64,000 nt of DNA, from positions 18,414,001 through 18,478,000 of the forward strand of contig CM060732.1 in assembly GCA_030704615.1 (NCBI GenBank). The letters run 5' to 3'. Made by a program: the position numbers and the translations under genes. This stretch comes from Takakia lepidozioides (lineage: Eukaryota > Plantae > Bryophyta). The notes beneath the pieces were generated by a model that saw nothing but the letters and a program-made list of their open reading frames with translations, was not told where the DNA came from and searched no databases. Below are positions 2,272-57,123 of this stretch, piece after piece (position 1 is the first letter of the stretch; every line of letters starts with the position of its first letter).

Positions 2272-2359
2272 TCCATGCACGAGCAAACATGATGATACTA
2301 GAGCTCGGTGGCATGGTGAGACGGATGAGGAGATGGGAGGATAGCATGCATCTGCCTTT

Positions 2360-14295: not shown

Positions 14296-14359
14296 TCTTT
14301 TCTCTTTCCTTCTTTTTGCCTGTTCCTCTCCCTCTCTCTCTCTCTCTGATATCTCTCTC

Positions 14360-27813: not shown

Positions 27814-28344
27814 TCACCGATTCCTGACTCGACCAAATTTCGGCCTATTTGCCTTCCTCTCCATCTTTTCCATTTTTCGCTTCTCTTTCTCATTCATGGG
27901 CGAATCGTCACTGGTCCGTTGGAAGAAGAAAGGATAGAGGGCTAGTTGCCACAACTTGTAGAAAGCAAAAATGGGAATCACAAGGTACACAAACCAGAAC
28001 TTGCCAGAGATTATGGACGAAACCTGGACAAAGCTGGTGATATACAGAATGTCATGGAGGTAAGCGCAAAGTCCCCCAGTGCTCATATCAAACCCACCAT
28101 CCAACAGCTCCCCTGTGCTCTCATCGAAAGAGGGTTTGGCCATCCTCGCCAGCTGGTCATACACCAGCTTGTAAGCACCTGTTGTCACGCACAATCCTAG
28201 TCCATCCTTCCATGACAGACTCCCATATCGCATTCCAAGCCTCAACACAACGTACAGAGCATTGCATATCAGAATTACATTACGCAGCATGCGCATGTGC
28301 TTCTCGTTCTCCTCCTTCCGTTTTTTTGCGCCCTTGTTCGCCAT
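27814..28344 (-). CDS. TMEM208: Transmembrane protein 208 / SND2 homologue (DUF788), intronless, 176 aa
   Basis: MANKGAKKRKEEN...LLDGGFDMSTGGLCAYLHDILYIT...LVIPIFAFYKLW with a basic C-terminus; single open frame from the ATG at 28344. Confidence 0.9.
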   Translation of the reverse strand: MANKGAKKRKEENEKHMRMLRNVILICNALYVVLRLGMRYGSLSWKDGLGLCVTTGAYKLVYDQLARMAKPSFDESTGELLDGGFDMSTGGLCAYLHDILYITSFVQVSSIISGKFWFVYLVIPIFAFYKLWQLALYPFFFQRTSDDSPMNEKEKRKMEKMERKANRPKFGRVRNR

Positions 28345-29534
28345 CTCTTCCGCCCTCGCACCCTCAGTCTGGCTATGGCGGGAGGATTTTCTTACTGGGA
28401 ACAATGGGCTAACAATCTACCATGTTAATATAGAAAACGAGGTTTTGGGAACCTTGTCGTTTGTGTAAGCTCTACTTCCAGGAATTACAACAGGAACCGG
28501 CCCACCATGTTCCTCTCACCTCAAGTTCACCAATAAGTATATGGGAACCTTAGCGCGCCTCTCTTCTTCAGGAAAAGGTCCGCGGACCCTAGAAATTTAT
28601 TCGTACAGTGAAGGCTGCTCTAAGACTTGTGGCTCTGCATCGCAGCTCGTGAAAATTCATATGTGAGATACCGGAGCAACTTGGTTTATTTTCAAATTTG
28701 GAGTGAGCCATACTGGCAGCAGCAGATGCTTGTGATGGTTTACAGCATTTGACAACTGCCTAACCCAATTACCTCTTACATTGCTGCACCCGCAATTTGT
28801 ATGTCACTCATACTCCATCAAGGGAACACTAGATGATGAAGGACCTATGAGTGGTATTGTGCAGAAGGGCTTCATGCTGTCCACAATGCGGAACCAGGAA
28901 GTTGGGTGCAAATCTTTATTGAGTCAGGCACATAACAAGTAAGCTTGTTGCCACCAAAACTTGTAACAAAAAATTAACAACATGATGAGTAGATCACAAT
29001 TGAACCAGGGGTGCAAACTAGAGTGGCACCATCTTTGCCACCCCAAGCAACACATTGGTGTATTGGTGTAAAGAGACAAAATACCTTTTACCTCCCAAAA
29101 CCAGCCGTAGTCTCCAATACAAATAGAACATAAAACCCCTTTGTTGTTTCCAGCATTGTAGGAGCTTATGACAAAGGAACCCCCAAAAAACAAGGCTACC
29201 ATGGCACCATAAGCTACTTTTGGTTGAACTTTGGCTGACTAGTAGCATATACAAAATAGGCTGACTCCTGCCAAAGCAAGCGTAAATCATGGTGTCCCTT
29301 CACCCCAAAGGGAATCATATACAGTGTAGAATAGATCAGATAATCTGAACTTCCATCCTGTGTCTGTGTGTATATGTGTGGAAGAGAGCAATATAGCACC
29401 CATACTATTGAAGAGAGCTGCTGTATCAACTCGCTCTCAGAGGAGGGGCCATTTCAGTCTTCATTGGTGATGATTGGTTATCAGCAGCCATTTGCTCCTC
29501 TTCAGCCCTGTCAATGGCAGCATCTACATTGTCC

Positions 29535-36662: not shown

Positions 36663-38890
36663 ACACAGAGATTAAGAGGAGACGACTTGCGTAAGTAAGA
36701 GCCACTTCCCCTTGCACATAATATTGCCCATTTCTAGTTGGCCAGGCTGCTCCCTCCAATACAATGTATCTCTATATTGATGGAAATGAGGGTTATAATG
36801 GAGTAATGAATACCAGGAGACTGATAATAGCCAGTGGCATCTTCCTTCCTAACTTGCTATCAATGGACTGTAGTCCCATGCATGAGAGAGAAGGAGTAAG
36901 TTAGGTATAATCTTTCCTTTGCAGGCTTCTGCATGTCAGCGGGCCATCACCATCTATTCAATAATTTGCATAGGGGGATCCATCCAGTCAGTGCCAGCAG
37001 CCTTGACTTGTGAAATTGAAACTGCTGTGTATATTGAAAATCCAGACTGAGTTCTGATTACCTTTGAGAATTTTATAAAATTTATGAAACCAGGTGAGGT
37101 TTTTTATTTATTTATTTATTTAAAGAGGGATGGTGGCCTCGAAGCTTTATAGATATGCGCGTAAAGATCGCGAAATACATCCGAAGAAAGAGTCAAAATG
37201 GGGATGATAGTGGAGGAAAAAATAACCTCCAAAGAGAGCCGTGAAGGCTTGACGCATGGGGTACACCCAGATGACCGAAGGGGGAAGTAAAGATGACGAA
37301 CTAAAGTGCAACAGATCCCTGCTCAATGTAGAGACTAGGGCTGACTAGCAATGAACCAGCTAGTTAGCCAGAAGCACCAAGCAAGGTGCCCTACTGCAGA
37401 ATGAGATGGGGACCAAGTGCCCATGCCAAAAACCTGAAGCATCAATACCACTGCACTATGCTCCAAAGTCCAACTGAACCTTCGATTTGTATGAACTCAG
37501 CTTCTGGTGACGCCAATTGACATCCTGTGCCTCAGACTCAGCTGGTGATTTGCCAAGCCCTGGGGAAGTTGTCATTCCAAACGATTCGAGTGTCAGAGAT
37601 CTGGGTACAGATGATACTGTCTTTAGCCCAGGTGATGTCGAAGTCCGAGAACAGCTGTTGCCTCCTCCTTTCATTACACTTGCTGGAATCTACAAAGCAA
37701 TACCCGCCACGCCTTATGGCCCTCAATCACCAGCTCTGCATAAATTTTGCATAGAACCGCTCTGATACTGGGGCTGACCGGTCTTGGAGCACAAGTTGCA
37801 AAGAGGTAGACCAATGAAGAACACAAAAAAAAACAAATAAACAAATAAACATGCTAGTGTTTGCCCGTTTGCCCTCTCTACTAGCAAATATCCTAGTTAT
37901 CAAATTATTGTACCCTTCCTTATTACCCGGCCATTGAATAGATTTACCCTGAGGGTAAGGGTATCCTTCGAAATTTCAAACCCCAGGGTATAATCCCTTA
38001 AGGGTATAACAAAAATAATTATCCTCGACAAGGGTAGGGTAAGGGTATTTTTGAATTTCCAGGGTAGGGTATATCCATATACCCTTATTGGGTTTTACCC
38101 TTAGGGTATAATGGCAGAAAAATGGTATCCTCCCAACACTGGTTTTTACCTACCCAAGGAGCCTTGCATGGTGCATGTCTTGGGTTACTTACAGGAATTT
38201 GAACATGATTTTTCAGCACACAAGATGCTTGCTTATATGCTTGTCTTGTTGTCATGACATGTACATAAACAAACCCCGCCCTCCCACCCTGTTTAATCAT
38301 GAATGATTGGGTGAAATCAATTGGGAAGTCATGACAAGAATGGAGGTGTTAGATGGTGCCATGTTTATGGGCTGTTTATGTCTTTAATTGACAATGACCC
38401 TACTGGGTCTTGTCCATGTCTTGACATGACATGAGTAACTTCCATCTCTCCCTCTCTCCATCTCTCTCCTTCTTTTCCCTCATCTCTCCCTCTGTCCCAT
38501 GAAGATGTGGAGAGAGAAGGAGAAAGGGAGAAAGAAGGAGTGAGGAGGGGAAAAAAAACTAAAAAAGAAGGTGGGGGGGGGGGGGGGGTGTGACTCAGCA
38601 GCACCAACATCTGAGCAACAGCTGCTGAGTCACTCCCCTCGGTCTTTGGCTCTTAGGTTTTAAGGGTTACATAGTTTAGTTTAGGGTTAGTTATAATATA
38701 GTTAGTTTAGGATTAGCTGCAATATAGTTTTGTTTTTAGGGTTTGGTTTTGTTGTGGGGTGGGGTGGGGACATATGGCTTTACGTTTGTAGGGTTTTTTT
38801 TTCAAGTTTTTCCAAGGGTTGGGAGTGTAACTCCTCCGGAGGTTACAGTGGGTCACAATACGGTACTCTACCTCTCTCTCGTGCTAGGTC

Positions 38891-40693
38891 ATGCCACGTG
38901 TTTATCGACGTGTCACGCTTGAGGATTCGTTGCCGGCTGTGCCACAACCACCTGCTGAGGGCGAGACAGCACGTTCGCCTCGTCTACGAATTAGGCGGCA
39001 TCGCCATGTCCGCACAGCTTTGCCCCCACGACCACCACCCCGAGGTCATAGGCCGCCAAGTCCAGAGGCACGAGCCCCGGGGAGACCCCGCCGGGACCGC
39101 CTCCCCAAGATTGAGTGTTGGTGCAGTTGGTGTTGGGCACGACTACCGGTTGGGAGGACCACACCGATGATGCGGCGACCCCATGTTGTGTAAAAACATT
39201 ACGCCAAGTACGAGATTGCTGATGCAGCAAAGGTAAGTCGTCCATATATCTTCTCACGTACTCCTCAATTAAAAGTACTATATCTAATGAAACCTCGCGT
39301 TTGTGAATTGAGTATGGATGCATTTCATATCATGCATCTTGCAGCCCCATCTTGATGTCCAAGCTCGCAATTTTTTTGCTGAAGAGGAATACCGATACGG
39401 GTTTCTTCCTTCTTACGAGCCCCACCCCGTTCCAGATGTGAACATTTTTTTCTCGCAACATGACGTAGATGCAGTTTGTGAGGTAGCGGGGTACGATGCG
39501 TGTTTTTCTATTTTTGGGCACTAGGCTAGGTGCTTGCCACCTACGCACACAAATTCGTCATCCTCGACATCGGCACCCCCATCATCCGCATCGTCCGTTC
39601 CTCCTATTGTAGATGGTCTTTCCTCATCACCATTGCCATCCGAGGTCCCTCATACCGACCGGCTACGTGTCCCTTCCTCTCCATTGCCGAAACCACAACT
39701 GCCACCGAGTCTGAGTTCGACATCCTCGACATCGACACCCCCATCATCACCATCATCCGCATCGTCCGTTCCTCCTATTGTACATGTTATTTCTTCATCA
39801 CCATTGCCATCCCGGCCATCTCGGCCAGTACTACCTCCACTTGAGATCCCTCATACCAACCTACGTGGTCTCTTCCCCTCCATTGCCGAGACCACAGCCG
39901 CCACCGAGTCCGTATCCGGGTCCTCCGGCAGAACCCAGATGGATCCCACCACCTTTGGGGACTGTGTATGACTGGGACCAATGGATCACTAGGTTCTCAC
40001 TCCGGGAGAAGGACCCCCGAAGTGATGGACGGGCGCCACCCCCTAGGAGAGGTGGACCGAAGTTGTTTCGCACGGTTGGTTCGCGCCTTCGCCGGCCTGA
40101 TGACGGCACCATACGTCATCGTGGTGCTAGGGAGCTATTCACGATGGGAGTCCAACCCCATTTCTACCAATGTCTTGTGTCTTGTCCAGTTCCGATTCCC
40201 GAGGGTGAGCCCTTTCTTTTTTGGGGTCGCATGTGTTGCGTGATGGAGGCAATGGACCCTAGTATGGGTTGCGGATTTTTTTTTATAGAGGATGTAGTTT
40301 TGGGGGGGGGGAGAGGATTCTGTGGATTTGTTCTCCTATTTTGGGCCGAGGTACACCCACCGGGAGTGGCAATTATTGCAGACACACGGCCTTGGGTCCT
40401 TGATCCATCCTTACATCCTTGTTGTGAACGACAATGATGTAAGGGCGAGAAATTTGGGCCGCAAAACCCATATTTATTGTGACGGAAACCCCGATGTGTA
40501 CAGCAACGTGGCTGGGCTCATCAACAGTTCAGTTACCTTACCGCCGGGCCACACCGCCAACGTGTTTTGGGATGAGCGCCATGACGGGGATAGTAGATTG
40601 GACCCTAACATCACCACTTTTGTGATGACATGTGCAAGGAGGACTATTAGGGCTGGAGAGGAGTTGTTTGCAGAGTATGACTTTAGGCGTTAG
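38891..40693 (+). pseudogene. SET-domain protein gene with Pro/Ser-rich N-terminus, TE-associated, disrupted
   Basis: MGCGFF (GxG), YCDGNP...NVAGLINSS...ANV and RTIRAGEELFAEY followed by a stop match SET motifs. Exon 1 has CWCSWC...H; intron about 39233-39344. Lesions: TAG at 39522 and frameshifts near 39180, 39865 and in homopolymers at 40276-40311. Confidence 0.75.
39559..39910 (+). repeat. Internal duplication (about 150-190 bp x 2) in the Pro/Ser-rich linker of the SET gene
   Basis: catcctcgacatcg.cacccccatcatc...ccattgccga.accaca.c.gccaccgagtc at 39559-39711 and 39721-39910. Confidence 0.8.
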
Positions 40694-41302
40694 CCGACTT
40701 TCATCATTTGTAGATGGACATAGGAAGACATTTTGTATATTGAGGTGGCTTCCTCCACCGTGTATATATATACATAGGCATTGATGTGTATTTGGATGCA
40801 GTTTTTCATGCTATATTCAAGGGAGTTTGGGTGGACGTTATATGTGAATTTGGGTATTTTGAATTATATAGTGTCTCCTTCATGTGGTGAAGCAATGTAT
40901 GTATTCCCCTCGTGTGTACAATGTGTACTTTGGGTTTTATCCTGTATGATAATGAACAACGCCATGTATGGAAATTGATAATGACATGGTTGTTTTTGGG
41001 CATCTTAGGATGCCGGCCACAACCCCACGACGTTAATTCATGAAGTTCATGATCTTGTCATGAACTGGGATTTTGTTCCTTCGGAGGGGGGTGTGTATCA
41101 AAGGGACCTGACAATTAAAAAAAAAAGACCATATCATGTTGGCTGCCATTGTACCGTATGAGTGTTCCCATTTCATGCTTATTATTACTTTGGATTTTAC
41201 ATTAATCTTCTTTTCTTTGGCGCAATTCCGATGGAAGATTGATGAGTGATGTAATCATGTAGTAAGATGTGTCATTCGTTATGAAGTATAATTAGCATAC
41301 AG

Positions 41303-43695
41303 GACTTACTGTTTGCTCGGGGTTGAGCACTAAAGGGTACCACACATGCCTGCATTGTGGCGATGAACTTGATGCACAAAGCTCCAACAATCTTCGCAAG
41401 ATGGTGTATCCCAACTACCGCAAGTTTTTTCCTATGAGCCATCATTGGAGAAGAAGAGACAAACACTTATTTGATGGCAAAGTGGAGTTACGTCCCCCAC
41501 ATGTGACACCATCCGGGCACTTTTGGGAAGACCGATGGAAGAAGGCTCATCCGGAGGGGTCTGGTGAAGTGGAGGTGCGCGGCATGAAGCGGCTTTCAAT
41601 CTTCTACGAGTTGCCATATTGGGCAGTATATATTCCACAAAAACACCATCAATATTGCTATGCATGCATGTGATATTGCATGTTTTGTATGATTTCCATT
41701 GTCACTTTCACGACAAAATAGACGTGTAAGAATTTGTGGGTGGGGATATGTGTAGGACCTGAAGATTCGTCATCTTCTAGATCCCATGCATATTGAGAAT
41801 AATGTTTGCTCGTCCTTTTTTCGTGTTCTTTATGGCACGCCGGCAAAGAATGGAGTGGCTGCGAAAAGAGATTCTCTCGGTGTTAGAAAGGAACTTGAGG
41901 AGCAGGGTCGCATGCCCCATCTATGGGCCGAAGAAAATGGTGTGGACCTAAAGGGTGTTGTACGGTGGAAGTATAGGCGTGCACCTTGGCAATGGACAAA
42001 GGAGGAATACAAAAAAGTGATAGCCACCATAGGAGCTGTCCGAACATCAACTGGTTATGGGTCATCCCTCCGTATGAAGTTCAACGAAGACGGGGTCCAT
42101 GGTTTGAAGTCTCATGACTACCACAATCTATTGCAAGACATCTTGCCCATTGCAGTACGTGGGACATTGACTCCCGAGGTTCGCGAGACGGTCTATAGAT
42201 TGGGAGCATTGTTCCGGTGGATTTGCTCCAAAGAGTTGGAGGAAGCGCACTTTCCACGCATGAAGAAGGAGGCGGCGGTGGTCATGTGTATGTTAGAGAT
42301 GCACCTTCCTCCCTCCTTCTTTGACATCCACGTGCACTTGGTAGTGCACTTAGTGGAAGAGGCTTCGATTGCCGGCCCCGTTCATTCTCGGTGGATGTAC
42401 TACCTTGAGCGATACATGAAGACTTTGAAAGCACATGTAAGACAAATGGCACACCCGGAGGGTAGCATGGCGGAGGGGTATACATTGCAAGAGGCTATGT
42501 TCTACTACATGGAGTACTTGGCAAGGGTGGATAAGGAAGCCCCTCCGATGTGGAAGGAAGATGAGGATATACGAACCAAGGACATCGTTTTGCCCAAAAA
42601 TTCAAAGAGGGTAAAATTACCCATCATGGTGATTAACCAAGCGCATGAGTACATACTGAAGAACACCCCATCCATACATGAGTGGGAGACAAGATACAAT
42701 AATCTTGTTCAGCAACGACAGGAGGAGACGGTTGCGTGGAGGCGGAACCATGCAAAAACGACTACACGCGCTCCGCGAGCAAGGGGCCGGGGTAGGAATA
42801 TGCCTTCATAAGAATTGCCCATGGAATTGCAGCCTCTAAGTTCATTCCGCCATTGGCTTCGGACTGAAGTAGAGGATAGCATTGCGAAAGGTGAGGTGGT
42901 TTCAGATTTGGTGCAAGACATTGCAAGGGGCCCCTCTCAATTTGCGACCTCATACACGGCGGTTTGGGTTCATGGTCGTCATTTCCGCATTCGTGCTCTT
43001 GACATGAAGCGCAAAACAACGGCTTGTGTGCCTCATATTAGCAAGACTCCGTGTGGGGCAGGGGAGATACACGACCATGCGCACACTCAACTACTTTGGA
43101 GAGCTTGAGAGCATACTCCAACTTCAGTATACAAGGCACCAGCCTCTTATCTTCAAGACAAGGTGGTTCCAGCCACATCTTGTGGGGCCATCCGCAACAA
43201 TAGTGGAAGACGAGTCTGGTTTCATGCGCGTCAATACAGATAGGCTCGAGTTTACTTATCGTCCCTCCGATGAGCATTTTTCATGGCCTTCAGACATAGA
43301 GCAAGTTTTCTTTTCCGGATCGGAAGGTGGTTGTGCATGCTCACCCAAGAGGAAGACGTATCTATCATGATCGGGGATCTACATGGGGCGAGGCAAATGC
43401 GGAGGAGGAAGAGACTGGTCATGGTGACACTGATGTTGGCTGAGGTTGGATAAAGGGGATACAAGAGAATGATGACGCCCCGGACAATGTATCCCGGACC
43501 CTATACGATGAGGCTCCATTAGATGCGGATGTTGGAGAAGAAGATGAAGACATGGTCATTGAAACCGAGGTGGAAGATGATTCAGATATGTCTTTTGGTG
43601 ACCAGGCCATTTATGACAATGATTTTGATGAGCAAGAAGACTTGCAGCTTGATGATGACGAAGAAGCTCCGGATAATGATGTTCAAGTTGATTAG
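41303..43695 (+). pseudogene. CACTA (En/Spm) TnpD/Tnp2-type transposase, N-terminally deleted and decayed
   Basis: KGYHTCLHC, SIFYELPYW, intron, LDPMHIENNV, GLKSHDYH, PPSFFDIHVHL, GPVHSRWMY...ERYM, HPEGSMAEGY (DUF4218-like), then NYFGELESI...FKTRWF (DUF4216-like) and an acidic tail. TIRs not identified. Confidence 0.92.
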
Positions 43696-44409
43696 ACACG
43701 TAATCAAAGCTATATAATAATTCTCGCACAGAATTGTACCCATCCCTTCGATTGATTGTACATGTACATGCATGTAGCTTATTTCTATGATTGATTAATG
43801 AAAAATCCATGAAAAAAATCTTTTGTAGGTGTGGCGATCTATGAATGATTTTAGTGAAGTTGTGACTCGAAAAGTGACTCTAGGATTATTGAGTTTTTGT
43901 ACGAGGGCAAGAATGTTGGAAGACATGGTTCTTGTTCTACAAGTGCTAACCAAGACTTATCCCTGGAAACCCTTCAATCGATTTGGTTACCATGATCTCG
44001 ATGCAACAGAAAGAATCTTCGAAATTGGTGTGAAAGACAACAATGTTGCCAAAACCATTGCCAAAGCAATCTACCCTCAACCCTCTAATCCCATGGCCCT
44101 TCCCTTTTCCTTTCCTAGTGTCCCCACCCCCTCTTCTTGCCCTTTGTCTTTAACAATAAGGCCGCTGGGGTTGATCACGATCTCCCACATACAAGATAGA
44201 CCTATTATATTGTAGCACAAAATGAGGACTAAAAAGATTTGCAACAATGGATCCATTCAGCTTGGCCTCTGCCATGACCTTTGCTAAAGACAATATTGCG
44301 ATTTCCCGTCGTCGCAGAACTGTTGGGGCATCGCAATGCCGTCACAAGGCGACCCCTGAAGGTCGCAACCCCCTGCATTTACAATATCTATGATTGCGGA
44401 TTTTTCCTA

Positions 44410-44728
44410 CGCAATGATTTTTGTTTTGGCTCTATTTTGTTCTGTGAATGCAAACCCCAGACCACTACATCCATGGAAAAAACTGGACCAAACAAAAATA
44501 AAAATAAACAAAGAGTTTCCTTCACTCACTATTGCGGAACTCTCTATGGAGAGTGCATGAAGTTGAAAAGAACTAAACTTGGGAGTGCAAATAAGAGAAG
44601 AAAATATGGTTTTTAGTCCAAATGATTTTTGTTCACTCCCAAAATTTGCACACGCATTGCAAACGTTGTCATTAAGCATATGGCTTGGGAACGGAATAAA
44701 ACAAAATCATGTGCATGTGCAAAAAATC
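44410..44728 (+). repeat. Dispersed repeat of about 320 bp (further copies at about 52172-52480, 54028-54345, 57810-58122 and partial 59025-59184)
   Basis: All full copies share aatgattttgtttttggct, actctctatgaagagtgcatgaagtt, ttggagtgcaaa and similar 3' blocks in the same orientation. Confidence 0.85.
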
Positions 44729-44996
44729 ATCATCCCACCTGAGAGGATGAGGAGGAGGATGTGGCGGTGGCAAGGTTGCACACGTCAGTGACGTCACGTC
44801 GGACCTGACGCTGACGCGACCAACGTCACGTCTGTTTTGCCGAAAAATCAGTAAAACATGAGTTAGGTGAAAAATATGTCACGTAGGTGGACACGTTGTA
44901 TTCCAATCGACACCTTGGCAAGTGAATGAAATGTTTTATAAATTACTCAATCCGCCAATAATTGAGGTCATTTTTAAATCATTATTCTTAAATTGG

Positions 44997-45612
44997 TGCG
45001 ACCTCCAAATGGTGGTGGTTGCAGAATTTATCTTATTTTTTAATAGTTGCAACCATTAGCAGAGGGGTTGTTGCAACATTTTTTGTTTTTTAAAAATAGA
45101 TGCGACCACCAGTAGGGGTGGTCGCATTTTTTTTCTTTTTTTAAACAGTTGCGACCACTGCTACTGGTGGTCGCACAATTTTTATTTTATTTGTAATAGG
45201 TGCGACCACCGGCATGGGGGTGGTCGAAGAATTTTAATTGTTTTTTTTTTATTAAAAAAAATTCTCTGTGTCCACGAGCATGGGGGTGGTCGCAGCATTT
45301 TTCGTTTTTTTAATAGGTGCGACCACCAGCATGGGGGTGGTCGCAGAAATTTTGTATTTGTTTAATAGGTGCGACCACGAGCAGGGGGGTGGTCGCAGAA
45401 ATTTGATGTTTTTTTAATAGGTGCGACCACCAACAGGGAGGTGATCGCAGCAATTTTTATTTTTTTTATAAATAATCTCTGTGACCACGAGCATGGGGGT
45501 GGTCGCAAAAATTTTCTTTTTTTTAATAGGTGCGACCACCAGCATGAGGGTGGTCGCAGCAGTTTTTTTTTTAAAAAAAACATGCGACTTCTTCGTGCGA
45601 CCTGAAGCGATC
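44997..45612 (+). repeat. Palindromic TGCGACCACC-N6-8-GGTGGTCGCA array 1 (T-rich spacers), upstream of TATATAA at about 45663
   Basis: About a dozen hairpin units with a period of roughly 45-55 bp. Confidence 0.9.
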
Positions 45613-45981: not shown

Positions 45982-47062
45982 ATGAGGGAGGAGTGGATCC
46001 CTTGATTCACCATAGACCCGCACAAAAAGGATGGTGTTCAATGCAATCTTTGTGCATTGAAGCTGGCGGGTCGCAAAGATCGCATGTTATATCACCTCGG
46101 CTACAAAGATAGGAAGAATGCAGGGGTTAGTTTATGCCCAAAAGCCTCCATGCAAGTGAAAGCCCACTTTGCCCAATGTGGAGGCAATATCCCCCCGTCT
46201 CTTGATGTGGCCGCGGCTTCTGAGCCAAATACTCCAGGTTCGAATCAAACTGTCATTTAGAGTTGTACCTAGGGGGATTCTTGCGAGGCGTCTACTGTTC
46301 GTGGAGAAGCCGGTGGATCAGGAGCAACACCCGATTGTACGCCAGCACTTGTACGGACCAGACCATTGAGGCAACAATCAATGCAAGAAGACTTAAAATT
46401 TTGTAGTAATCTGCGCTTCTAAGCCAACCGTGCTTCATCTCACCCTGCTCCATCTCATGTTTCTCTTTCTTAAGCCGGTCCATCCCATGCTGGTCCATCT
46501 AGTCTCTCTCCCCCTCATGTAATTCCTTCCATCGCTACTCCGATCCTGGGAGATGGTTCTTCTGCTGCGGGACTTCTGCAAGTCGAACCATCGGATGACG
46601 ACGACCGGCCATTGTTGTTTCATCTGGCCCGACGATGTCCGCATGTGAACCGTGCTCCCTCGACCCTCGCTGGTCCATCTCATGCCCCTTCCTCTCATGT
46701 CGGCCCCTCTGATGTACATGCGAGTAGCCTTTCTCATACGAGACCTGCTCCAAGGCCACCACGAAATCCGGGACAAGCCCAGAAACGGCAGAGAATTGTG
46801 CAACCTTTTGTTGGTGACCGACCTGTGAACAGGCCTGAAACTTAGATGGTATTAATGATATGAGTGGAAATCGACCAGAGAGACAACTGAACGTACTCTG
46901 AAGACGACTACAGGTCCAATGGCCAGTTGCCTCTGGAAACGAAAGAACAGATGGAGGTCATGATTCTAGCACTGATCATGGGAACGGGGGTGCAGTGAGT
47001 GGGGACGAAGATTTTGTACTAGATGTGAGATCATACCATCGTCGTCGTGGCAGACGGAATTA
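45982..47062 (+). pseudogene. Internally deleted hAT transposase (BED zinc finger plus low-complexity C-terminus)
   Basis: MREEWIP*FTIDPHKKDGVQCNLCALKLAGRKDRMLYHLG...VSLCPK matches the W/F-Cx2C-H-C BED pattern, followed by LRQQSMQE. No catalytic core follows. Confidence 0.65.
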
Positions 47063-47389
47063 GGTACAACTATAACTTCTGTGACTTGTCACATAATGTG
47101 TAGTATGTTTCCATGGATATCCATGTTTCAGTTTGGGTACATGCATACGTGTACGGAAATAAAAATGGTGGAATATATGTACCCAAGAAAGGGTTTGGTG
47201 GTTGTACGTGTGTTTGTGTTTCGTCATTACCTTTACATTGTTGATTTCCTATTATGGTTTTCGAAAGCCACAAAAGTCAGGTGCAGCTCCCAACATTCAT
47301 CTTCCCCTTCACAAATCCATGGAAAGTCGATACATGTGTTTTTCATCTGCCTCTCCAAACATACATACAGGTGCAAGGGAACCAACCTT

Positions 47390-48030
47390 CTGGTGGTCGC
47401 ACATATTTAAAAAAAAACAATTGTGTGACCACCAGTAGCGGTCGTCGCAACTGTTAAAATAAAATAAAAATGTTGCCACCACCCCCCTACCCGTAGTTGC
47501 ACCTATTTACTGATTTACTGATTACCCCTGCTGGTGGTCGCAGATTTTATTTTATTTTATTTTGGGAAACATCTGGGAGCGACAGCTCACAAATCAGGCC
47601 CTTTAGTAGTGAGAAGAGAAAATAACCTCTTTCATTTATGCGCCAAGAGGCGTAGATTTTCCTTTTCTTTAATAGATGCGACCACCAGCAGGGGGGTGGT
47701 CGTAGGGGGGTGGTCGCATAATTTTCCGATTTTTTAATATCTACCAACAGTCAGTAGCTCAGTTGGTTAAGTGCACTGAGTGTGACCCGAACGATTCTGG
47801 GGTCAAATCTTGCTACTTGATGGGTGTGGTATGGTTCGTGTGTGGTGCCCCATTGTGCGACCACCAGCAGGTGATGGTCGCATCTATTTGTTTTAAACAA
47901 ATCTCTGTGACCACCCCTCTGCTGGTGGTCGCGCCTATTAACAAAAAACATTATGCGACCACCTCTCTGCTGATTAAAAAAACAAAAATCTGCGACCACC
48001 CCCCTGCTGGTGGTCGCACATAATAAATAA

Positions 48031-48079
<49 letters not shown>

Positions 48080-48101
48080 ACCACCCCTGCTGGCGGTCGC
48101 A
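47390..48101. repeat. Palindromic TGCGACCACC array 2, with (TA)n at about 48036-48076, upstream of TTATAA at about 48161
   Basis: Same motif as arrays 1 and 3, but internal to the element. Confidence 0.9.
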
Positions 48102-48525: not shown

Positions 48526-51145
48526 ATGGCGGAGGAGGAAGACAGATGAGGTCATCCCAGGGATAACGATAATGAACCTGGACCTCCAAAAAAAAACCAA
48601 AAGGGGCCAGGCGCGAACTTTGTTGGGACATATACAATGACCCCAACATTCTTGCGGAACCAGGTTGGGAAGTTTGGAAGTTAGGGCAGCGGTGGTCGCT
48701 TGGTGACTGCAGGAAATTTGTGGACTGGTGTCACATAAATCGTTTGTGGCCCAGTGATAGTTGAAGGAGCAGGGATAGAGTGTGGGTCCAGATTCATCCA
48801 AGAGGGCCAGATTTCATGATCCACAAACCAAACAAAATCAAGCTAGTTTGCATTCATGCGCCAACCCGCATTTCCGCCACAGGACAGAGGAGATATATAC
48901 AACATTGTGGGGTCAACCGCTCGTCAACAACAAGGTCCCGTATTTATTTGCGGCCATGTTGTACACAAAGTTGATTTTATTGCGACCGGTGGATTGACAA
49001 ACTGCCACTGCGAGACAGCGTACTAGACTATACATGTTCTCTGATATCCCAGACTTGTATATACGTCAGGGGCAGGACATCATACGGTTCGATGGAAACA
49101 ACGAGGTGGAAGAAGGAGGAAAGACGGATGGAAACGACGATGTGGAAGAAGGAGGAAATGCAGACCAACCTCCAGATTATACGCCGCAACGGGTCTCCGC
49201 AGCCGGACCTTCAACGTCTAAGGTGGAGGGGTGCAAGGTACGCTCTCCATTGGAGGAACAGTTGGCCGCACATGAACAACACATCAAAGACCTGTAGGAC
49301 ATTGTTCATTTGCAACGGTGACAACTAGCAAAGTTGCTGGAAAGAATGGGGTTGGGGACTCTTGACAGCGTACGCAGTGTGCTTCAGGACCCGAGGCCAA
49401 TCACCAACGAGCAAGACATATTGGCGCGTTTGAATATGCCACCAATGGACATTGACCGCGTCATCAACATGGTTGACTCAATCGGGCATGGGAATGAAGT
49501 GCAAACGTTTGAACTGGACCCGGCGAGGGTTGAGGAATAAAGACTTGCGGCGGAGAGGACAAGAAAAGGGAAGGACCTCATAGTGGAAACTGAGGAATGT
49601 TCAGCCGTGCAAATTACATCGGCCCAAGAACAAGAATTAGAGCAGCTTGTAGGGGAACGCGAGCAAGCTAGGGCTGTTGCATATCGGTACTCAAATGCCA
49701 TGCAAATCCGATCATGACCATGGTTGAAGGGGAATTGGCGGAATTGGGTGACATGGGCGGGCCATCTAACATCGCGGGAAACACGAATAGAAGAAGTGTT
49801 GTCCTCCCTCCAACGTGCAACACGTTTGTCGAATCGAAGCGTAGATAACATCTATGTTAATTTGCAAAGGCACGACACTGTGCGTGATGTATTCGTGTCG
49901 AAGTACACTGGATTCACCACATGGGGTGATGTGCATGCCATGTTTGAGCACTGTGTGCATACAATTTCCGATACCAATAACAGCATAAACTGGGATTTGG
50001 AAGTAGAGGAGGAGTGGGACACCAGGCCGAGGATGTCATCCTACATTAATGAGGATAAACGGACGTGGATACCACAGAGCAATCCAGCGTCATGGGTAAC
50101 AGATGGTACGGTGTGCACAATGTGCCTAAACCCTTATGGACCGGAGGGAGGCTATATGCTTGGTTCATGTGGCCATTTGTTCCATCCCACATGTCTCATA
50201 TCGGCAGCCATGCGAGCCAGCCAATGCCCTGACTGCCGTGGACCAATCCATCGACGTTTCTACAAGTTGTTTGGGTTGCAACACAATATGCCCACGCGAT
50301 ACGAGTACAACCGGTACAACATGCCATTGGATGTATCGCCTTACGATTTTTTAAATTAGCAGCACTAGGGGGAGACAATGACATGGGATGCTCCAAGAGA
50401 GATGCACGCCTTGGATGCGAAGACGTTAACTAGGGTTAAAGATCCGGTGACCTTTTGGGTGACATCCAACTGGGAAATAACCGTGCGTGCTAGAGGCATA
50501 CGGGACCCAGTCCAAAGAGATTTTTTTTGCCGGAACTTGGGAGGGCATTGGAGCTGTACCAGACAAAGATTCTTCCGACTGCTTGAGGATCCGTGGGTGC
50601 CAGCGGAAAACGACCCATACAATCGCGAACCGACTGGGAGAGACCTATTTCTGAGGGAGTTGGAAGCCACTAGCATCCGTTGGGAGGATATGAATGAGAC
50701 GTACTGGGTGCCTCGTCGGGATGATGGGCCATTTCTTCCAGAGTTGCGTAGAGACCCCCAGCAGGAGGAGGTGTTGGACAATTTCAAGGCTGCCATCACG
50801 AGTGTTCTAAAGTATTGGCAGAACACATGGCGTGACCAAGTTGCCCCTATTCCAGGGGTGTTCTTGCCACTTCCAAACATATCGGATTTAATTGAAAAAT
50901 TGCATGCCGCCGTAGCAAGAGCGACACACCCGGCTCTGGCAAATGTGGAAGAGAGTCAGCACTCGCCTAGAACGCTACGCATGATGGCAAGGGTGGACCA
51001 CACAACACTGGGTCCCTCTTTGACCACTCGAGCCCAGGCTCGAGCTCTCCGTACTGGTGGAGGCACGTCCTCTACACCCGGAGCATCTTCATCAACATCT
51101 GGAGATGACGACAACGAAGTAATAAATCTAGATGAAGATGACTAG
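48526..51145 (+). pseudogene. RING-H2 finger protein (about 870 codons, intronless), hAT cargo, decayed
   Basis: ORFs 48782, 49034, 49334, 49724 and 50378 are all in one frame, split only by single stops. At 50114-50236, CTMC...CGHLFHPTC...CPDC is a C3H2C3 RING. A coiled-coil-like stretch is present and the protein ends EVINLDEDD. Confidence 0.8.
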
Positions 51146-51239
51146 AAAGGCTAGAAACGTAGGGAGTAGGCCAAAGGTCTCAGGTTGCGAAAACTTAAAT
51201 GTGCAACCTACTATATAGTCTACATAATTTTTGGAAATA

Positions 51240-54200
51240 CGAGGTTCATCCTTTGAACCATTTTTTAATGACCTCATACTTGTTCGGTACCTGTTTGACG
51301 GCATGTACAATATACTGGCAAAGTTTCAAAACAATCAAAAAATGCTGAATGAAGATACCATTGGTTCACCCATTGCAATATTTTTAAATCGAACTCATAC
51401 TTGTCCGGTACCTTTAAGAGGGCATGTACAATGCAATGGCAAAGTTTGAAAGCATTCAGAAATCGGCACATCAAGTAACCATTGGTTCCTCATGTGAACC
51501 ATTTTTTATTGATCTCATACTTGTCCGGTCCATGTAAGAGGCATGTAGAACATACCGGCAAATTTTCAAATCATTCAAATTTTTTTTGATTAAGGAACCT
51601 TTGGTTTATCCTTTTCACCATTAACGATTAATCACAAATAAATGAACAGACGCATAAATCATTTGCCTCCAAATGATTTTGGTTCGCTTTGAGACTTGGC
51701 CAGTATATTCAATGTGTCATGGAAGAGGCCCCAGAGTAATATGAGATCAATCAAAATTTGTTCAATGGGCCGACGGATGGTTGCCCATCCAAATGATTTT
51801 CGTTCGCTTTGAGACTTGGCCAGTGTGTTCAATGTACCCTCTGATAGGTCCCAGTGTAATATGAGATCAATCGAAATTTGTTCGATGGGCCAATGAGGCG
51901 TTCAGTTGTCATCTGGTTTTTGTTCATTGCGAAAAAAAAATCCTGCAATGCGTGCACGACTATTGCACCCATTGAACGGATGTGGTTGAAGCCCCTCTTT
52001 TGCCCGCATGTGCTTGAACATGTGTGCGACACATGTGCGGAGACACAACAGACGAATAAATCATTTGCCTCCCCATCGACACCAAGCCATTCCATAATGT
52101 AATTGAATTTAAATTAATTTAAGCCAATAAATAGGTTTGCACTGCCTTTCATTGGGGGTTTCTGGCACGTATCGATTTTGTTTTTGGCTCAATTTTGTTC
52201 TGCGGCTTCTAGCATCCTAGCACTACTCCCCCGCCAAAATTTGGACCAATAAAAAATGCCCCAAAAAAAAAGTGTTCTCTTCGCTTACTATTGCAAAACT
52301 CTCTATGAAGAGTGCATGAAGTTAAACACAAATCAAGTTTGGAGTGCAAAACAGGGAAGAAACTGTGGTTTTGGGGTCCAAATGAATCATGTTCGCTCCC
52401 AAATTTAGCACGCACGTTGCATATGGCTACATTACACGCCCCATTCAAAAACCGAATGAAAAAAAAATCGTGAGCACACGAAACACAGTCCAACAGGTCC
52501 CAAAGCAATAGCAGATGTAGCGGAATACATTCAACGGGTGAACGGATGGTTGCCCATCCAAATCATTTTTGTTTGCTTCCAAACTTTGCCAGTACGTTCG
52601 AGACACCCTCTCACAGGTCCCAGACTAATATCAGATCAATCAAAATTCATTCGATGGCTCAACAGAGGTTGGCCATCGAGATGATTTTGGTTCGCTTTGA
52701 GACTTGGCCAGCATGTTCAATGTGCCATGGAAGAGGCCCCAGAGTAATATGAGATCAATCGAAATTCGTTCAATGGGCCGACGGATGGTTGCCCATCCAG
52801 ATGATTTTCGTTCGCTTTGAGACTTGGCCAGTGTGTTCAATGTACCCTCTGATAGGTCCCAGTGTAATATGAGATCAATCGTTAACGATTAATCATGAAT
52901 CATTCAACAGGGGAACTGTTGGTTCACCCTTTGAACCATTTAACATTGACATCATACTTGTCCAGTAACTTTAAGAGGGCATGTACAAGACACTCGCAAA
53001 GTTTCAAATGAATCCAAAATCATTTGGCAGGGGATTGATTGGTTCACCCATAGCCAATTTCAGGGGTTGGACTTGCAATTTGAGGGGCTGAAACTACCAT
53101 TCCAGGGGCTTCAATTGCCAATTTCAGGGGCTGCACTAGCAATTGCCATTTCACATGATACAGTTGCAATCTGAGGGGCGGGAACTGTCATTTCAGGGGC
53201 TAGAAGTGCAATTTGAGGGGTTGGAATTAAATTTCAGGGGCTTCAATTGCAATTTGAGGGGTTGGAATCGACAATTTCAATGGCTCAAATTACAATTTGA
53301 GGGGCGGCCGGGGTTGGTCATTTTAGGGACTGACCTTACCAATTTTAAGGGCTTGACTTGCATTTTGAATTGTAATTCAAGGGTTACAATGGGCCATTGG
53401 GGGGCTATAATTACCAAAGCAATGACATAAATCATTTGATAGCGGAATGATTGGTTCACCCTTTCAACCATTTTTTATTCACGTCATACTTGTCCGGTAC
53501 TTGTAGGAGGGCATGTGGCTGACACTTGCAAAGCTTCAAAGCAATGTAAAATCATTTGATAGTGGAACAATTGGTTCACCCTTTCAACCATATTTTACTA
53601 ACCTCATACTTGTCCGGTACCTTTAAAATGGCATGTGAAAGACACTTGCAAAGCTTTAAAGCACTCCAAAATCATTTGATATGTTCATGATTGATTCACC
53701 ATTTTAACCATTTTAGATTGATTTGAAACTTGTGAAAGACCTGTAAGAGGGCATGTACAAGACACTTGCAAAGTTTCAAATCAATTTAAAATCATTTGGT
53801 AGGGGGACGATTGGTTCACCCTTTAAACCATTTTAGATTGATGTCATACTTCTCAAAGACGTGTTAGAGGGCATGTAGAAGACACTTGCAAAGTTTCGGA
53901 GCAATAAAGTATCATTTCATCGGGGAAGTTTCCGTTCACCTTTTCATCCAATTTTGAATTGAACTGGATTTTTACTAAAAAAAAATGATTTAGAGGGCAT
54001 AGGATTGTGGGGCGCAATGAGTGTGAGGCGCAATGATTTTGTTTTTGGCTTGATTTTGTTCTGTGAGTTAAACCCTCACACCACCACATCCCTGCCAAAA
54101 AATGTACCAAAGAAAAATGTTTGGAAAAAAAAACGTTCATCCTTTGCTCTATGCTCACTATTGCAGAACTCTCTATGAAGAGTGCATGAAGTTGAAGATA

Positions 54201-54680
54201 ACTTCACCTTGGAGTGCAAATGAGGGAATAAAATGTGTTTTGGATACAGACGATGTATGTTCATGGTGATATTTTGCATGCAACTCTTCATGTTGTTATC
54301 AAGCATATGGATTCAGAATGGAATTAAAAACAATTCATGTGCAGGCGAAAGATTATTTTTCCTTATGAATTTGAATAACCGATTCAAACAACTTTGTTGC
54401 AGTTCAACTTTGGTCCATATGTGCTTAAGTACGTACAAATCACGTACACAAAGTTGCAAGCGAAGAAATAATCATTTGCCCCCTGAACGACTCGTTAAAC
54501 CTTTCAACCAATTTTCAATCATGAATCATTTAATAGTGGAACTATTGGTTCACCCTTAGAACCATTTTAGATTGACCTCATACTTGTCCGGTAACTTAAA
54601 GAGGGCATGTACAACACACTCCCAAAGTTTCAAATCAATCTAAAATCATTTGGCATGGGAACGATTGGTTCACCCATTAA
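51240..54680. repeat. Patchwork of a 120-bp satellite in both orientations, plus a roughly 21-bp tttgaggggc minisatellite (53060-53380)
   Basis: ttggttcacc-like anchors at 53451, 53571, 53691, 53811 and 53931 (period 120) and at 51361, 51482 and 51601. Reverse-oriented 120-bp copies at about 51660-51900 and 52540-52880. Confidence 0.85.
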
Positions 54681-54845
54681 CCCGGTGTACACTGTCACTC
54701 TTCAAGATTCGTGGGTGTGGTGCTTGATTATCCCATATGATGGACCCAGGTGTCATGGCCAAGTAACAAACCATTAAAACATTATGGTACGAGACAAACA
54801 CAATTGAAAACAACATTTATTCAAACATGGTGTACAGTCAGAGGT

Positions 54846-56353
54846 CTACAAGTTTCTATCCATCCTCCAGCAATTTTTGGGCTCAGGCAAATTGAATAGC
54901 CCCGTCATGAAACGCTTCACAACATTTTCTAGTTTGTACCGCAACTCTACTGTGTCTACACACAAGTTTTCCAGAGCGGAAGCAAAACAGGTTCCAGTAG
55001 ACATATCGTTGAACAGACTTGCATCGAACGTGTTACCCCCATTTATTGCCTGGGCTATCTTCCCAATTGCAAAGGTCTCTGATGGCACGGTTAGAAGGGG
55101 CCTACAAGATGTGCCATCTGACTGGTTGTTGGTTACATTATGAACAATTGCAATTTCAGGTGCAATCCACCATCTATGTGCGAGAGTCTTTATCATCTTG
55201 TCTCTGTTCTCGAAAATGTACAACGTGGTTTTTGGGTCATCCGTCGTGGAGGCCATCCCCCAATCGCATACCCCAATGTACACATCTTCAGATCCTTGTG
55301 GAAAATGCAACAAGATGTTGTCGGGGAACATGTCGTTGTGCAAGAGGTGGTGATTATGGACGTTGAGCATGATGTGCAAAAGCGCCCATGCCAATTGTGT
55401 GCAATTCTGTCGGAATCGAACTAGTCGGTTGACCTCCTGCATTTCCTGCTCCGTCCCCCGTCGTTTCATTAACTCTCTGTTATCCCGATCATTCCCCAAT
55501 TTCCTGTCAATACTCAACCATGATCGTATGGTCCTCCCATTCCACCAATGTGTGTAACCTTCATTTCGACGTGGATGTAACGCAAAATACTTTATGATGC
55601 CGAAATGATGGAACTTTACAGCCGACGCCTCATTGTTATGTTGGACTTTGGCAAGCTCAACATTTGTTTCCTTGGGCGTTTTCCCTGCTAGCTCCCAAGA
55701 TGAAGGAATGAATAGATCCCCAACAATTCTAACCCTTCGAATTGTACCATACCCTCCCTGTTTGGGCGTGTCGAGTTGTTGTACCTGTGCGTTTGTGGAT
55801 ATGTATCTCACGTTCAATGCCGCATCCGCGGACGAGGACCTTGCCTTCCCTGGAGTGGTTTTGTACGTCGTTTGGCGTGGGCCTTTGCCATGTCAGACCA
55901 CTAATCCACAAGCACAAACAACTCATCATCCGAAGTTGGCATGCGACCTTCAGCTACATGTGTTCTTGTAACAAACTTGTCTATGGTTTGCCTCAGATTC
56001 CATGTGGCATCATGGGCTCGGTTCTCCATCCATTTCGTGAATTGGAACTTTGCCCTGTCCTCCTCCCATTCATCCCCGGCCAAAGCCTCCCTCATTTTCA
56101 TCTCCATATTGTGCTGGAATCTAAGGAACCCCTCATTCCTATGTCGGACATACAAAAGATTCAAACGCATTATGTCATTGTCCTTCAAATAATCCAGCAC
56201 TACTTGATTCACCACCTTCGCGGCCTCTGCGTTTGGATAGTCTTTTTTGTTGACCTGACTATCCCGTTCATATGCATGTTTACGCTTCCTACCTTTACGC
56301 CCACTTCCCGAGGAATCCCCTGACACTGCGTTCGAAGCAACGTTTCCGGACAT
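54846..56353 (-). pseudogene. Protein kinase gene (intronless), hAT cargo; kinase domain open at 54846-55817, N-terminal part 56353-55901 cut off by a stop and a frameshift
   Basis: QGGYGTI (Gly loop), LAGK, NEAS, LLHNDMFPDNILL (catalytic loop), CDWGMA, WIAPE. Confidence 0.85.
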
Positions 56354-56719
56354 AATGAAAGTACTCTGAGGGATAGACGCGGCTTCGTAACGGAAAACTA
56401 AACCCAGACTATTGATAACCTTATATACTAGCAGACCAATTTCCTCACCATCTATTGGTATAGTACCCAAAGCAAACTCTCCCGCAGTCCAAGAAAAAAA
56501 AGCTAAAACTCCTCCCCCACACAAATCCACTTTCTCCCCCCCCCCCCCACTCTCAGTCCTGGCCACTGAAGTTTAACTCCAAGAAGCCCCAGAACCGCAC
56601 TCACAGAGAGGGAAAAAAATGGGTTGGGAATGAGGGGTAGGCCCTTATATACTGCTTGGAGAGGCCTGACGTGCGATCGCCTCTGCTGCCCATTCACGCC
56701 CCGCCACGTGTCCAGGGAG

Positions 56720-57123
56720 CGGTCGCACCTAATAACAAAAAAGAAAAAATCTGCGACCACCACTGGCTGGTGGTCGCACCCATTTAAAAAATAATTAAAA
56801 ATGGGCGTGGTCGCACCCATTTAAAAAGTAATTAAAAATGTGCGACCATCCTCTGCTGGTGGTCGCACCTATTTAAAAAAAATGAAAAAGTTGTGACCAC
56901 CACCTGCTGGTGGTCGCACCCAATTTTTTAAAAAAAAAAAATGTGCGACCACCCTCTGCTTGTGGTCGCATCTATTAAAAAAAATGAAAATGTTGCGACC
57001 ACCACCTGTTGGTGGTCGCACCCATTTAAAAAATAAGAAAAATGTGCGACCAGCCCCTTCTGGTGGTCGCACCTATTTAAAAAAAATAAAAATTTGTCCG
57101 ACCAAGCTTTGCTGACGGTCGCA
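56720..57123 (-). repeat. Palindromic TGCGACCACC array 3 (inverted relative to array 1), upstream of minus-strand TATATAA at about 56644-56650
   Basis: About eight units with A-rich spacers on the plus strand. Confidence 0.9.

Follow-up and report, generated by a model that had tools for sequence, protein, structure and literature searches.

A SET-domain exon nested in the transposase gene of a decayed CACTA element of Takakia lepidozioides: a candidate transposon-encoded lysine methyltransferase

The analysed window is a 64,000-nucleotide stretch of the Takakia lepidozioides genome (assembly GCA_030704615.1, contig CM060732.1, positions 18,414,001 to 18,478,000), in which a degraded transposase gene and a SET-domain coding region lie on the same strand with the following parts (window coordinates).

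38886..38887, + strand: probable AG acceptor closing an intron in the 5' untranslated region; the ATG follows after 3 bases (CTAG/GTCATG)
38891..39232, + strand: exon 1, 114 codons, with ATG at 38891 and a phase-0 donor (AAG/GTAAGT)
39233..39344, + strand: intron 1, 112 bases, phase 0, GT..AG in the sequence
39345..40693, + strand: SET exon (linker and SET domain), stop codon TAG at 40691-40693
39554..39910, + strand: duplicated Pro/Ser linker of two units, from self-blastn
40222..40690, + strand: SET domain, from GxG, LINSS, the terminal Tyr, and profile and fold matches
41009..41112, + strand: probable beginning of the first TnpD-specific exon, phase-0 acceptor TTAG/GAT, truncated by a deletion near 41113
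41113..41302, + strand: probable 3' end left over from a TnpD intron, with a phase-1 acceptor (CAG, 41300-41302)
41303..41625, + strand: TnpD exon covering the end of Transposase_21 (positions 133-198 of the profile), from a profile match
41756..43698, + strand: last TnpD exon, with DUF4218, a DUF4216-like part and an acidic tail

Exon 1 encodes a Pro/Arg-rich part followed by a C-x-C-x2-C...H module (39116-39199), with C-x-C-x2-C at 39116 and the His at 39197, and contains an in-frame stop codon (TAA at 39191). Its borders coincide with breaks in contigs from X8, a single run that we guess to be RNA: record 24 begins to match the window at 38886, its preceding 154 letters being unmatched, and X8 contigs lose the match at both edges of intron 1 (39230 and 39343), which the DNA contig X5 record 16 crosses without interruption. 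If read through, exon 1 and the SET exon comprise 562 codons. The two linker units (39554-39711 and 39716-39910) are 72% alike in self-blastn; both the N-terminal Cys/His module and the linker duplication that an earlier note had read from this DNA were recovered. X8 record 26 crosses 39483-39524 with one gap letter, which led us to discard a second intron there.

The SET domain carries GxG at 40267-40275 (MGCG at 40264-40275), LINSS at 40517-40531 (INSS at 40520-40531) and a C-terminal GEELFAEY, whose terminal Tyr at 40676 is followed four codons later by the stop codon. The match of the SET piece to PF00856 is weak (E=0.0039, 18 bits, cut-off 22.4), and neither a word-based search among longer proteins nor phmmer against PDB sequences found a match. 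A structure model of the domain (pLDDT 85.5) retrieved SET proteins as all of the listed Foldseek matches (best E=1.5e-3), VIA-align gave a best Z of 9.4 (rmsd 3.3 over 98 residues), and the fold match of an intact relative reached E=6.8e-7. Model and fold matches thus agree on the terminal SET domain proposed in the earlier note, where the sequence profile alone stays below threshold, and the absence of a SET fold, which that note had named as fatal to its proposal, was not observed. The fold matches include enzymes for H3K4, H3K27, H3K36 and H4K20 as well as inactive SET domains, with MLL5, which is not known to be active, ranking first for the window model. As the earlier note had also said, no cysteines follow the SET domain, which ends at TAG 40691-40693; the relatives likewise end within a few residues of the terminal Tyr. 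Post-SET zinc cysteines typify the SUV39, SET1 and SET2 classes, and in their absence we do not place the window SET in any of these.

The SET family was defined by 25 of 27 phmmer matches, two long repetitive proteins being left out; PF00856 matches 22 of the 25 members and 12 pass its cut-off. These proteins are only 28-38% identical to the window, with GxG, Asn and the terminal Tyr kept at 70-90% or more and Asn70, Ser71, Gly114, Glu116 and Tyr121 conserved in at least 90%. They have neither a reader domain nor a post-SET zinc site. For relative P0145, the best Atlas cluster consists of 50 SET members, most of them from Streptophyta; the last homologue search, in which 7991 candidates were scored and five proteins returned, gives no taxonomic range. 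The INSS that the earlier note had seen in place of the usual NHS recurs in this family: in every row of alignment A1 the His of the RFINH motif, as described in the available part of PMC3980110, is absent at that place. Judged from this alignment, INSS is a family trait and not decay.

Downstream on the same strand, TnpD is recognised by PF02992 (E=1.4e-11) and PF13960 (E=9.3e-33) and has 161 homologues at E<=1e-20. The match starts only at residue 439 of a 1135-residue relative; about 370 TnpD codons are deleted near 41113, and a search with 120 TnpD proteins did not find the N-terminal part elsewhere in the window. The last exon contains a stop codon at 42809, a base that is C in all contigs matched from X1, X3 and X5, and frameshifts near 43020-43090 and 43320. 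At the 5' side, the TnpD acceptor at 41009 lies 316 bases after the SET stop codon. The piece at 41009..41112 had no match in Pfam or tblastn, and X5 record 17 departs from the window at 41112 with 371 further letters unmatched. Contig depth climbs to the TnpD level within 41113..41302, and the TnpD frame of the related locus L015 breaks, after HDYPG, at the same codon as the acceptor of this intron remnant. The earlier note's spacing of about 600 bp between the SET gene and a downstream TnpD in the same orientation is right as to the strand; the distance is that to the remnant, the likely exon start being 41009.

The position of the Cys/His exon bears on how the two coding regions are connected. 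Among 22 related loci, this exon was found 5' of SET in 10, with a phase-0 donor in nine of the 10, and between SET and TnpD in none of the eight loci with TnpD directly downstream. The window's own module matched no profile, including PF13963 (Transposase-associated domain), and gave E=0.14 against that of L017, the spacer being longer in the window; the equivalent exons of L013 and L017 gave sub-threshold PF13963 matches (E=1.2e-4 and E=0.011, respectively). In X8, the match of record 25 ends at the end of exon 1 with 107 letters left over, and a depth of 2.84 in bin 40912-41087 agrees only with a start at 41007, where the acceptor of TnpD has its AG. The same bin depth could be yielded by another contig. 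Exon 1 is likely common to SET and TnpD transcripts, and the matched splice phases, together with this one probable RNA run, make it likely that exon 1 is alternatively spliced to SET or to TnpD. The two tandem genes of the earlier note give way to one nested transcription unit with a common first exon, in which SET sits inside the TnpD gene. Relatives have in-frame ATGs at, or shortly past, the TnpD acceptor; therefore, TnpD could also start independently.

In the window, exon 1 and the SET exon carry two stop codons (TAA at 39191 and TAG at 39522) and two extra bases, one near 39867 outside any homopolymer and one near 40302 in a G run. The base at 39867 is missing from other-copy contigs at all depth in four of four runs; for 40302, which X8 does not cover, the depth without the extra base is 1241 of 1306 in X3, 13.8 of 13.8 in X5 and 569 of 1395 in X1. 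Both extra bases are, by this comparison, specific to the window copy, and in the G run an assembly error is indistinguishable from a real lesion. The suspicion that one homopolymer frameshift could be an assembly error was right as to its place in a G run, and the contigs of other copies lack this base; further lesions, also anticipated, exist in both SET and TnpD. Whichever way the G run is read, the window copy is broken, a dead fossil that makes neither protein. Contigs over SET and the SET-TnpD gap reach a depth of 744 in X1 and 1241 in X3, about 20-fold deeper than the shallowest listed contigs (27-39 and 48-55, respectively), which suggests roughly 20 or more copies, depth being a rough guide to copy number.

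These depths bear on the possibility that a single-copy SET gene of the host happens to neighbour a truncated transposon and that assembly errors account for its lesions. One frameshift does fall in a G run. In addition, the downstream 495-1231 bases contain no TnpD in L019, L021 and L022, a divergent subfamily, so host genes may be among the members. The roughly 20-fold depth over SET and the gap, the four SET lesions with several more in TnpD, and the same linkage in other lineages speak against this possibility. We consider this coincidence extremely improbable in general, and contig depth and TnpD linkage in relatives refute it for the window locus. The single-copy host genes unlinked to CACTA, which the earlier note had named as contrary evidence, were accordingly not what we found.

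In eight of the 22 related loci, TnpD comes directly after SET in the same orientation, and three more contain the first TnpD stretch. SET is thus followed by TnpD in 11 loci from two families, 10 of them from a single family with ~95% identity; most of the others are too short. In addition, liverwort gene model P0157 joins half a SET domain to Transposase_21. The position and splice phase of the SET exon are the same across lineages whose SET proteins are less than 40% identical. The dN/dS comparison among copies (pairs with pS <0.65; the frameshifted L012 and L015 rows left out), suggested in the earlier note and made in relatives other than the window's family, gave 0.20-0.40 between families and 0.22-1.31 within one family, where many copies are broken. 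Purifying selection on SET is thereby supported between families.

The values within one family, along with the broken copies, are what would be expected if the SET exon were a passively captured host fragment of the Pack-CACTA type with no role for the element, and a low-depth contig in X1 and X3 seems to skip the SET exon, a weak indication with 25 letters on one side. The dN/dS between families, the constant position and phase despite such divergence, and the lack of a close host parent among the 27 phmmer matches argue against passive capture, a reading already weakened and, in our judgement, very unlikely. We regard SET as transposon cargo with high confidence.

The TIR scans of the window found no convincing TIR pair enclosing both genes, as had been reported before, and no convincing target duplication. 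In L015, CACTACA at 6060 and TGTAGTA at ~15940 (one mismatch) surround the SET-TnpD unit, the flanks ACA and ATG differ and so offer no matching 3-bp target site duplication, and TGCGA/TCGCA clusters occur at both ends; in L018, CACTACTACA lies 1.8 kb before exon 1. The 5 kb preceding exon 1 in the window contain no such clusters. Clusters downstream of 44200 appear to be part of another element. Neither the scanned window ORFs nor the additional L015 genes matched a TnpA of the PF03004 type, and these additional genes have no match in the window. L015, L003 and L006 also bear a separate head-to-head gene without family assignment; therefore, SET may add to, and not replace, a TnpA-type factor. 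We interpret the window region as a decayed member of a multi-copy CACTA (En/Spm) family.

The conserved GxG, Asn and Tyr make catalytic activity of the SET protein fairly probable. Alternatively, the SET domain may persist without catalytic function, as a binder or decoy that engages, for instance, histone tails or the host Polycomb or H3K9 machinery. Such a role would suit the family-wide lack of the RFINH His and a protein that stops just after the terminal Tyr. According to the available text on RomA, its isolated SET domain binds SAM poorly without the ankyrin part, and the window family lacks a C-terminal part of this kind. RomA/LegAS4, which is the best match by profile in PDB, itself reads YINFS without the His, and in the part of PMC10653858 available to us it methylates H3K14; the His is therefore not needed in every SET enzyme. 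With an active enzyme lacking the His and with GxG, Asn and the terminal Tyr retained as given above, we consider the decoy role improbable.

We favour a model in which the SET exon lies in the predicted first coding intron of the transposase gene and intact copies would splice one Cys/His exon to SET or to TnpD. The SET product, a predicted lysine methyltransferase, would mark the element's own chromatin and keep the element expressed; through the common exon, SET production would be coupled to transcription of the transposase and, more speculatively, the enzyme might be recruited to TnpD or to the element's DNA. As a whole, a decayed CACTA copy with a nested SET exon, alternative splicing and a methyltransferase keeping the element expressed stands at about an even chance, and its last part, a histone substrate with an anti-silencing effect, drawn from analogy, is possible though short of probable. 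The transposon-encoded chromatin modifier of the earlier note gains from the SET fold, the TnpD linkage, the multi-copy family and the purifying selection, and loses its tandem-gene layout.

An active element-encoded methyltransferase could also have another target, such as TnpD, a host silencing protein or a self-limiting repressive mark. The layout and the selection evidence fit this equally, a family without a reader domain or a post-SET zinc site would suit it, the N-terminal module common to SET and TnpD would suit contact with TnpD, and SET proteins also methylate non-histone targets (PMC10653858, in the part available). VANC and TnpA, the accessory proteins known from DNA transposons of plants, in contrast activate their elements in the available text of PMC12730594 and 10.64898/2026.08.24.746577, and we hold such a target to be unlikely, though a serious alternative.

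In the excerpts available of PMC13547354 and 10.64898/2026.08.24.746577, TnpD and TnpA of maize En/Spm and Arabidopsis EN/SPM3 come from one gene by alternative splicing, and Spm3 TnpA lowers CG methylation on its own family. The window TnpD has the same Transposase_21, DUF4218 and DUF4216-like parts, the second product likely comes from the same transcription unit, and relative L015 has CACTA-like ends; unlike in En/Spm, the second product has a SET fold where TnpA has a DNA-binding domain, and it is encoded 5' of the main part of TnpD. The text available from PMC12730594 describes (i) SET genes carried by HarbingerS and MuDR families of the oomycete Phytophthora, likewise cut-and-paste DNA transposons with SET cargo and a presumed anti-silencing role, in another superfamily and kingdom, whereas the window SET exon is nested in the transposase gene; (ii) VANC of VANDAL (MuDR), a sequence-specific regulator; and (iii) TET/JBP genes of fungal transposons, including EnSpm, which oxidise methylcytosine. 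VANC and TET/JBP are element-encoded and counter, or are thought to counter, silencing, and neither is a lysine methyltransferase. RomA/LegAS4 and SET8-type compact SET domains are the best matches by profile and fold, at ~20% identity and without ankyrin repeats in the window family, and no substrate is transferable from them. In primates, SETMAR is a SET domain fused to a mariner transposase, domesticated as a single-copy host fusion; its structure 3bo5 is among the VIA-align matches listed. Like SETMAR, the window unit combines SET and transposase in one gene; unlike it, the unit occurs in multiple copies, with SET and TnpD as probable alternative products and not as one chain. The literature searched held no plant CACTA element with SET, and one could already be recorded in Repbase or in supplementary files of the 2026 Spm preprint.

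Tentatively, an early land-plant CACTA lineage may make its own histone methyltransferase by alternative splicing and place a protective mark on its own copies. The plant anti-silencing factors VANC and TnpA bind the element; a SET enzyme would, if this is true, itself write chromatin marks and give plants an example of anti-silencing that is enzymatic and acts at the level of histones. Assays could use existing intact relatives, which measure 230-560 residues, and transformation is easy in mosses and liverworts, so the escape of transposons from histone-based silencing would become directly testable.

The decayed CACTA (En/Spm) copy carries a SET-domain exon between a Cys/His first exon and the TnpD body.

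Gene layout of the window copy
38891 (ATG) to 39232, + strand: exon 1, with a phase-0 donor, AAG/GTAAGT
112 bases between exon 1 and the SET exon: intron 1
39345-40693, + strand: SET exon, comprising a duplicated Pro/Ser linker and then the SET domain

In the sequence, the exon 1 module consists of C-x-C-x2-C at 39116 and a His at 39197. The Pro/Ser linker units are 72% alike in a self-comparison of the window, and the SET stop codon lies four codons past the terminal Tyr of the domain. If read through, the SET gene including exon 1 has 562 codons; codons 101 and 174 are stops, and there is one extra base at about 39867 and another at about 40302. Downstream are a Transposase_21 tail (E=1.4e-11) and DUF4218 (E=9.3e-33). 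The earlier note's description of a SET gene followed by TnpD matches the sequence, except that TnpD is truncated, since its match begins at residue 439 of a 1135-residue relative and 120 TnpD protein queries located no N-terminal part in the rest of the window. The block at 37920-38110, 800 bases 5' of exon 1, is dense in ACCC/GGGT motifs and may be either a subterminal region or a small element.

Contigs of four sequencing runs (X1 and X3, from one sample, X5 and X8) were compared with the window over 38800-44050, and those of the three DNA runs (X1, X3, X5) occupy every bin. Depth reached 744 in an X1 contig over 40730-41013 and 1241 in an X3 contig over 40064-40345, versus 27-39 and 48-55, respectively, for the shallowest contigs listed; this suggests a family of roughly 20 or more copies, contig depth being no copy number in itself. 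Among the best 40 of 480 window-versus-contig differences, which do not include the two SET stops, the extra base at 39867 is absent from all aligned contig depth in all four runs. In X3 and X5 most contig depth also lacks the one at 40302, and the base at the TnpD stop (42809) is C throughout X1, X3 and X5. One X5 contig (record 17) spans SET to 41112 and continues with 371 letters absent from the window, which places a deletion in the window TnpD at about 41113. By this comparison, the extra bases and the TnpD stop are therefore particular to the window copy, and SET and TnpD move together within its family. Over 38800-44050, the window has A/T against G/C of other copies at 140 places and the reverse at 60 (X1), a bias that deamination of methylated cytosine would produce in a silenced copy.

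An aligned set of 11 relatives, used as the query in one metagenome scan, yielded 22 related loci. TnpD lies directly 3' of SET on the same strand in eight of them, and its first stretch is present in three more (94-99% to L004); ten of these 11 loci form one large family, and L017 represents another. Among the 11 loci without a visible TnpD, seven end no more than 402 bases past SET, L013 is followed by an acidic ORF that matches nothing, and the divergent subfamily (L019, L021, L022) shows no TnpD within 495-1231 downstream bases. The named relatives, P0138 and P0157, both come from the liverwort Riccia sorocarpa, and P0157 is a gene model fusing half a SET to Transposase_21. Linkage occurs in four lineages including the window, and one lineage has no sign of it. 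By kinship, the window is likely to come from a bryophyte. In the relative L015, 9.9 kb containing exon 1, SET and TnpD lie between a CACTACA end and a TGTAGTA end, each accompanied by TGCGA/TCGCA clusters, and the flanking bases are unlike. SET is very probably cargo of the element; that it is a chance neighbour of the transposon is a very unlikely reading. The window locus is filed as CACTA by its transposase; a scan of the window found no convincing pair of terminal inverted repeats around the two genes. Two further minus-strand ORFs of L015 have no Pfam match: L015:7485-8620, head-to-head with exon 1 and found also in L003 and L006, could be a TnpA-type factor, and L015:14665-15093 recurs in L005.

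Several other elements share the window. Units 44221-44715 and 57430-58123 are paralogous (77-78% in two blocks) and begin with GACTAAAAAG at 44228 and CACTATAAAG at 57437, each opening being followed by TGCGA/TCGCA motifs; both probably represent the left ends of additional elements of CACTA type. Since the TnpD stop lies only about 530 bases before the unit at 44221, that unit Arrays of 51-bp palindromic repeats (44980-45580, 47380-48090, 56720-57100) each lie just 5' of a TATA-like motif and a gene. The adjoining genes are ORF 46006-46257 (no Pfam match; presumably BED-finger-like), a RING gene at 49718-51142 (PF13639, E=1.8e-7) and two minus-strand genes, ORF 55904-56572 and a kinase at 54849-55892 (PF00069, E=5e-8). 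Arrays and genes together might form one large transposon with several genes, whose own regulator would bind the arrays. The stretch 51200-54700, which lies between the RING gene and the kinase, holds several 120-bp tandem arrays and one 21-bp array. The window also contains a Ty3/gypsy pol (757-3916) with a PHD finger past the integrase (PF00628, E=1.4e-10), a broken copia element (4688-8075, minus), a LINE reverse transcriptase (14232-16620), an intronless TMEM208 ORF (27817-28416, minus; PF05620, E=1.5e-53) and a 10/51-bp satellite (62950-64000).

The window SET piece (131 residues) matches PF00856 below the cut-off (E=0.0039). A full HMMER scan against 1.84 billion representatives found 27 matches, or 25 relatives after two long repetitive proteins were dropped; 22 match PF00856 and 12 pass its cut-off. 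The canonical SET motif is RFINHXCXPN (PMC3980110). The INSS for NHS reported earlier proved to be a family trait, since His is absent from this place in every row of the family alignment, which has [YFL][IVM]NS and retains GxG, Asn, GEE and the terminal Tyr. The family profile has 58 matches to PDB sequences at E up to 1, SET proteins throughout among those listed; the best is RomA/LegAS4 (E=2e-5), whose motif is YINFS and which trimethylates H3K14 (PMC10653858). The predicted structure of the window piece (pLDDT 85.5) retrieved only SET proteins among the Foldseek matches listed (best E=1.5e-3), aligned in VIA-align with Z 9.4 and rmsd 3.3 over 98 residues, and the model of an intact relative gave a structure-search E of 6.8e-7. 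Together with the profile matches, these bear out the SET domain, and the fold is settled at the level of predicted models; the protein is filed outside the SET classes having post-SET zinc. A non-catalytic decoy, with which the missing His would agree, is a less probable reading; with the other motifs kept, the product is predicted from sequence to be catalytically active, with somewhat better than even probability. Enzymes for H3K4, H3K27, H3K36 and H4K20 tie in comparison with the SET piece, so no single substrate is favoured, and the target might also be a non-histone protein or the mark a repressive one.

Nei-Gojobori counts in relatives of the window's family gave dN/dS of 0.20-0.40 when L001 was compared with ten large-family copies. 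Members of the large family compared with one another gave 0.22-1.31, and the range among L019-L021 was 0.20-0.25. Passive capture of the exon is an unlikely alternative to set beside the upper end of these values; the pattern as a whole is that expected of a gene that would be held by active elements and decay in inserted copies.

The Cys/His exon lies 5' of SET in ten of the 22 loci and never between SET and TnpD in the eight loci with TnpD. It resembles PF13963, the N-terminal TnpD domain, below the cut-off in L013 (E=1.2e-4) and L017 (E=0.011); the window module has a longer spacer and is recognized by neither PF13963 nor another profile; it is judged homologous from its pattern and position. 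Splice donors are phase 0 in nine of ten loci and SET acceptors in six of ten (two have lost the AG, one is frameshifted and one has no visible acceptor). TnpD acceptors are phase 0 in six of eight loci, the other two being in frame with the first TnpD stretch given a later frameshift or intron; in-frame ATGs nearby make an independent TnpD start possible. The window acceptor is TTAG/GAT at 41009. X8, a supposed RNA run, has contigs with edges at 38886, 39230 and 39343, each of which falls at a predicted splice site, and a DNA contig from another run crosses intron 1 unbroken. Record 25 of X8 (depth 6.16) extends 107 letters beyond the end of exon 1. Out of 176 start positions, 41007 alone, which falls on the AG of the TnpD acceptor, accounts for the depth of bin 40912-41087 (2.84) under a formula that reproduces three other bins (7.77 against 7.76, 2.77, 7.5); the fit is from this single run, the junction sequence being absent from the best 15 of 31 rows. 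This is a first, indirect hint that exon 1 is spliced to both SET and TnpD, and such alternative splicing is likely. Separately, X1 and X3 show a contig of low depth that links 39342 with 40886 and so apparently skips the SET exon, with only 25 letters on one side.

Alternative splicing yields both TnpD and TnpA in maize Spm and in Arabidopsis EN/SPM3, and Spm3 TnpA reduces CG methylation of its own family (PMC13547354; 10.64898/2026.08.24.746577). Among Phytophthora transposons, HarbingerS and MuDR families are reported to carry SET genes, and fungal EnSpm elements to carry TET/JBP genes (PMC12730594). A search of the literature, to which Repbase Reports and supplements did not belong, turned up no account of SET cargo in a plant CACTA element. 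The nested SET is a real, conserved feature, and the window copy is dead. Intact elements would transcribe one unit, with exon 1 spliced to SET or past it to TnpD. The SET product would be a lysine methyltransferase whose most plausible target is the chromatin of the element itself, and the methylated chromatin would keep the element expressed; by analogy, such putative histone-level anti-silencing is a tentative reading, rated somewhat short of even.
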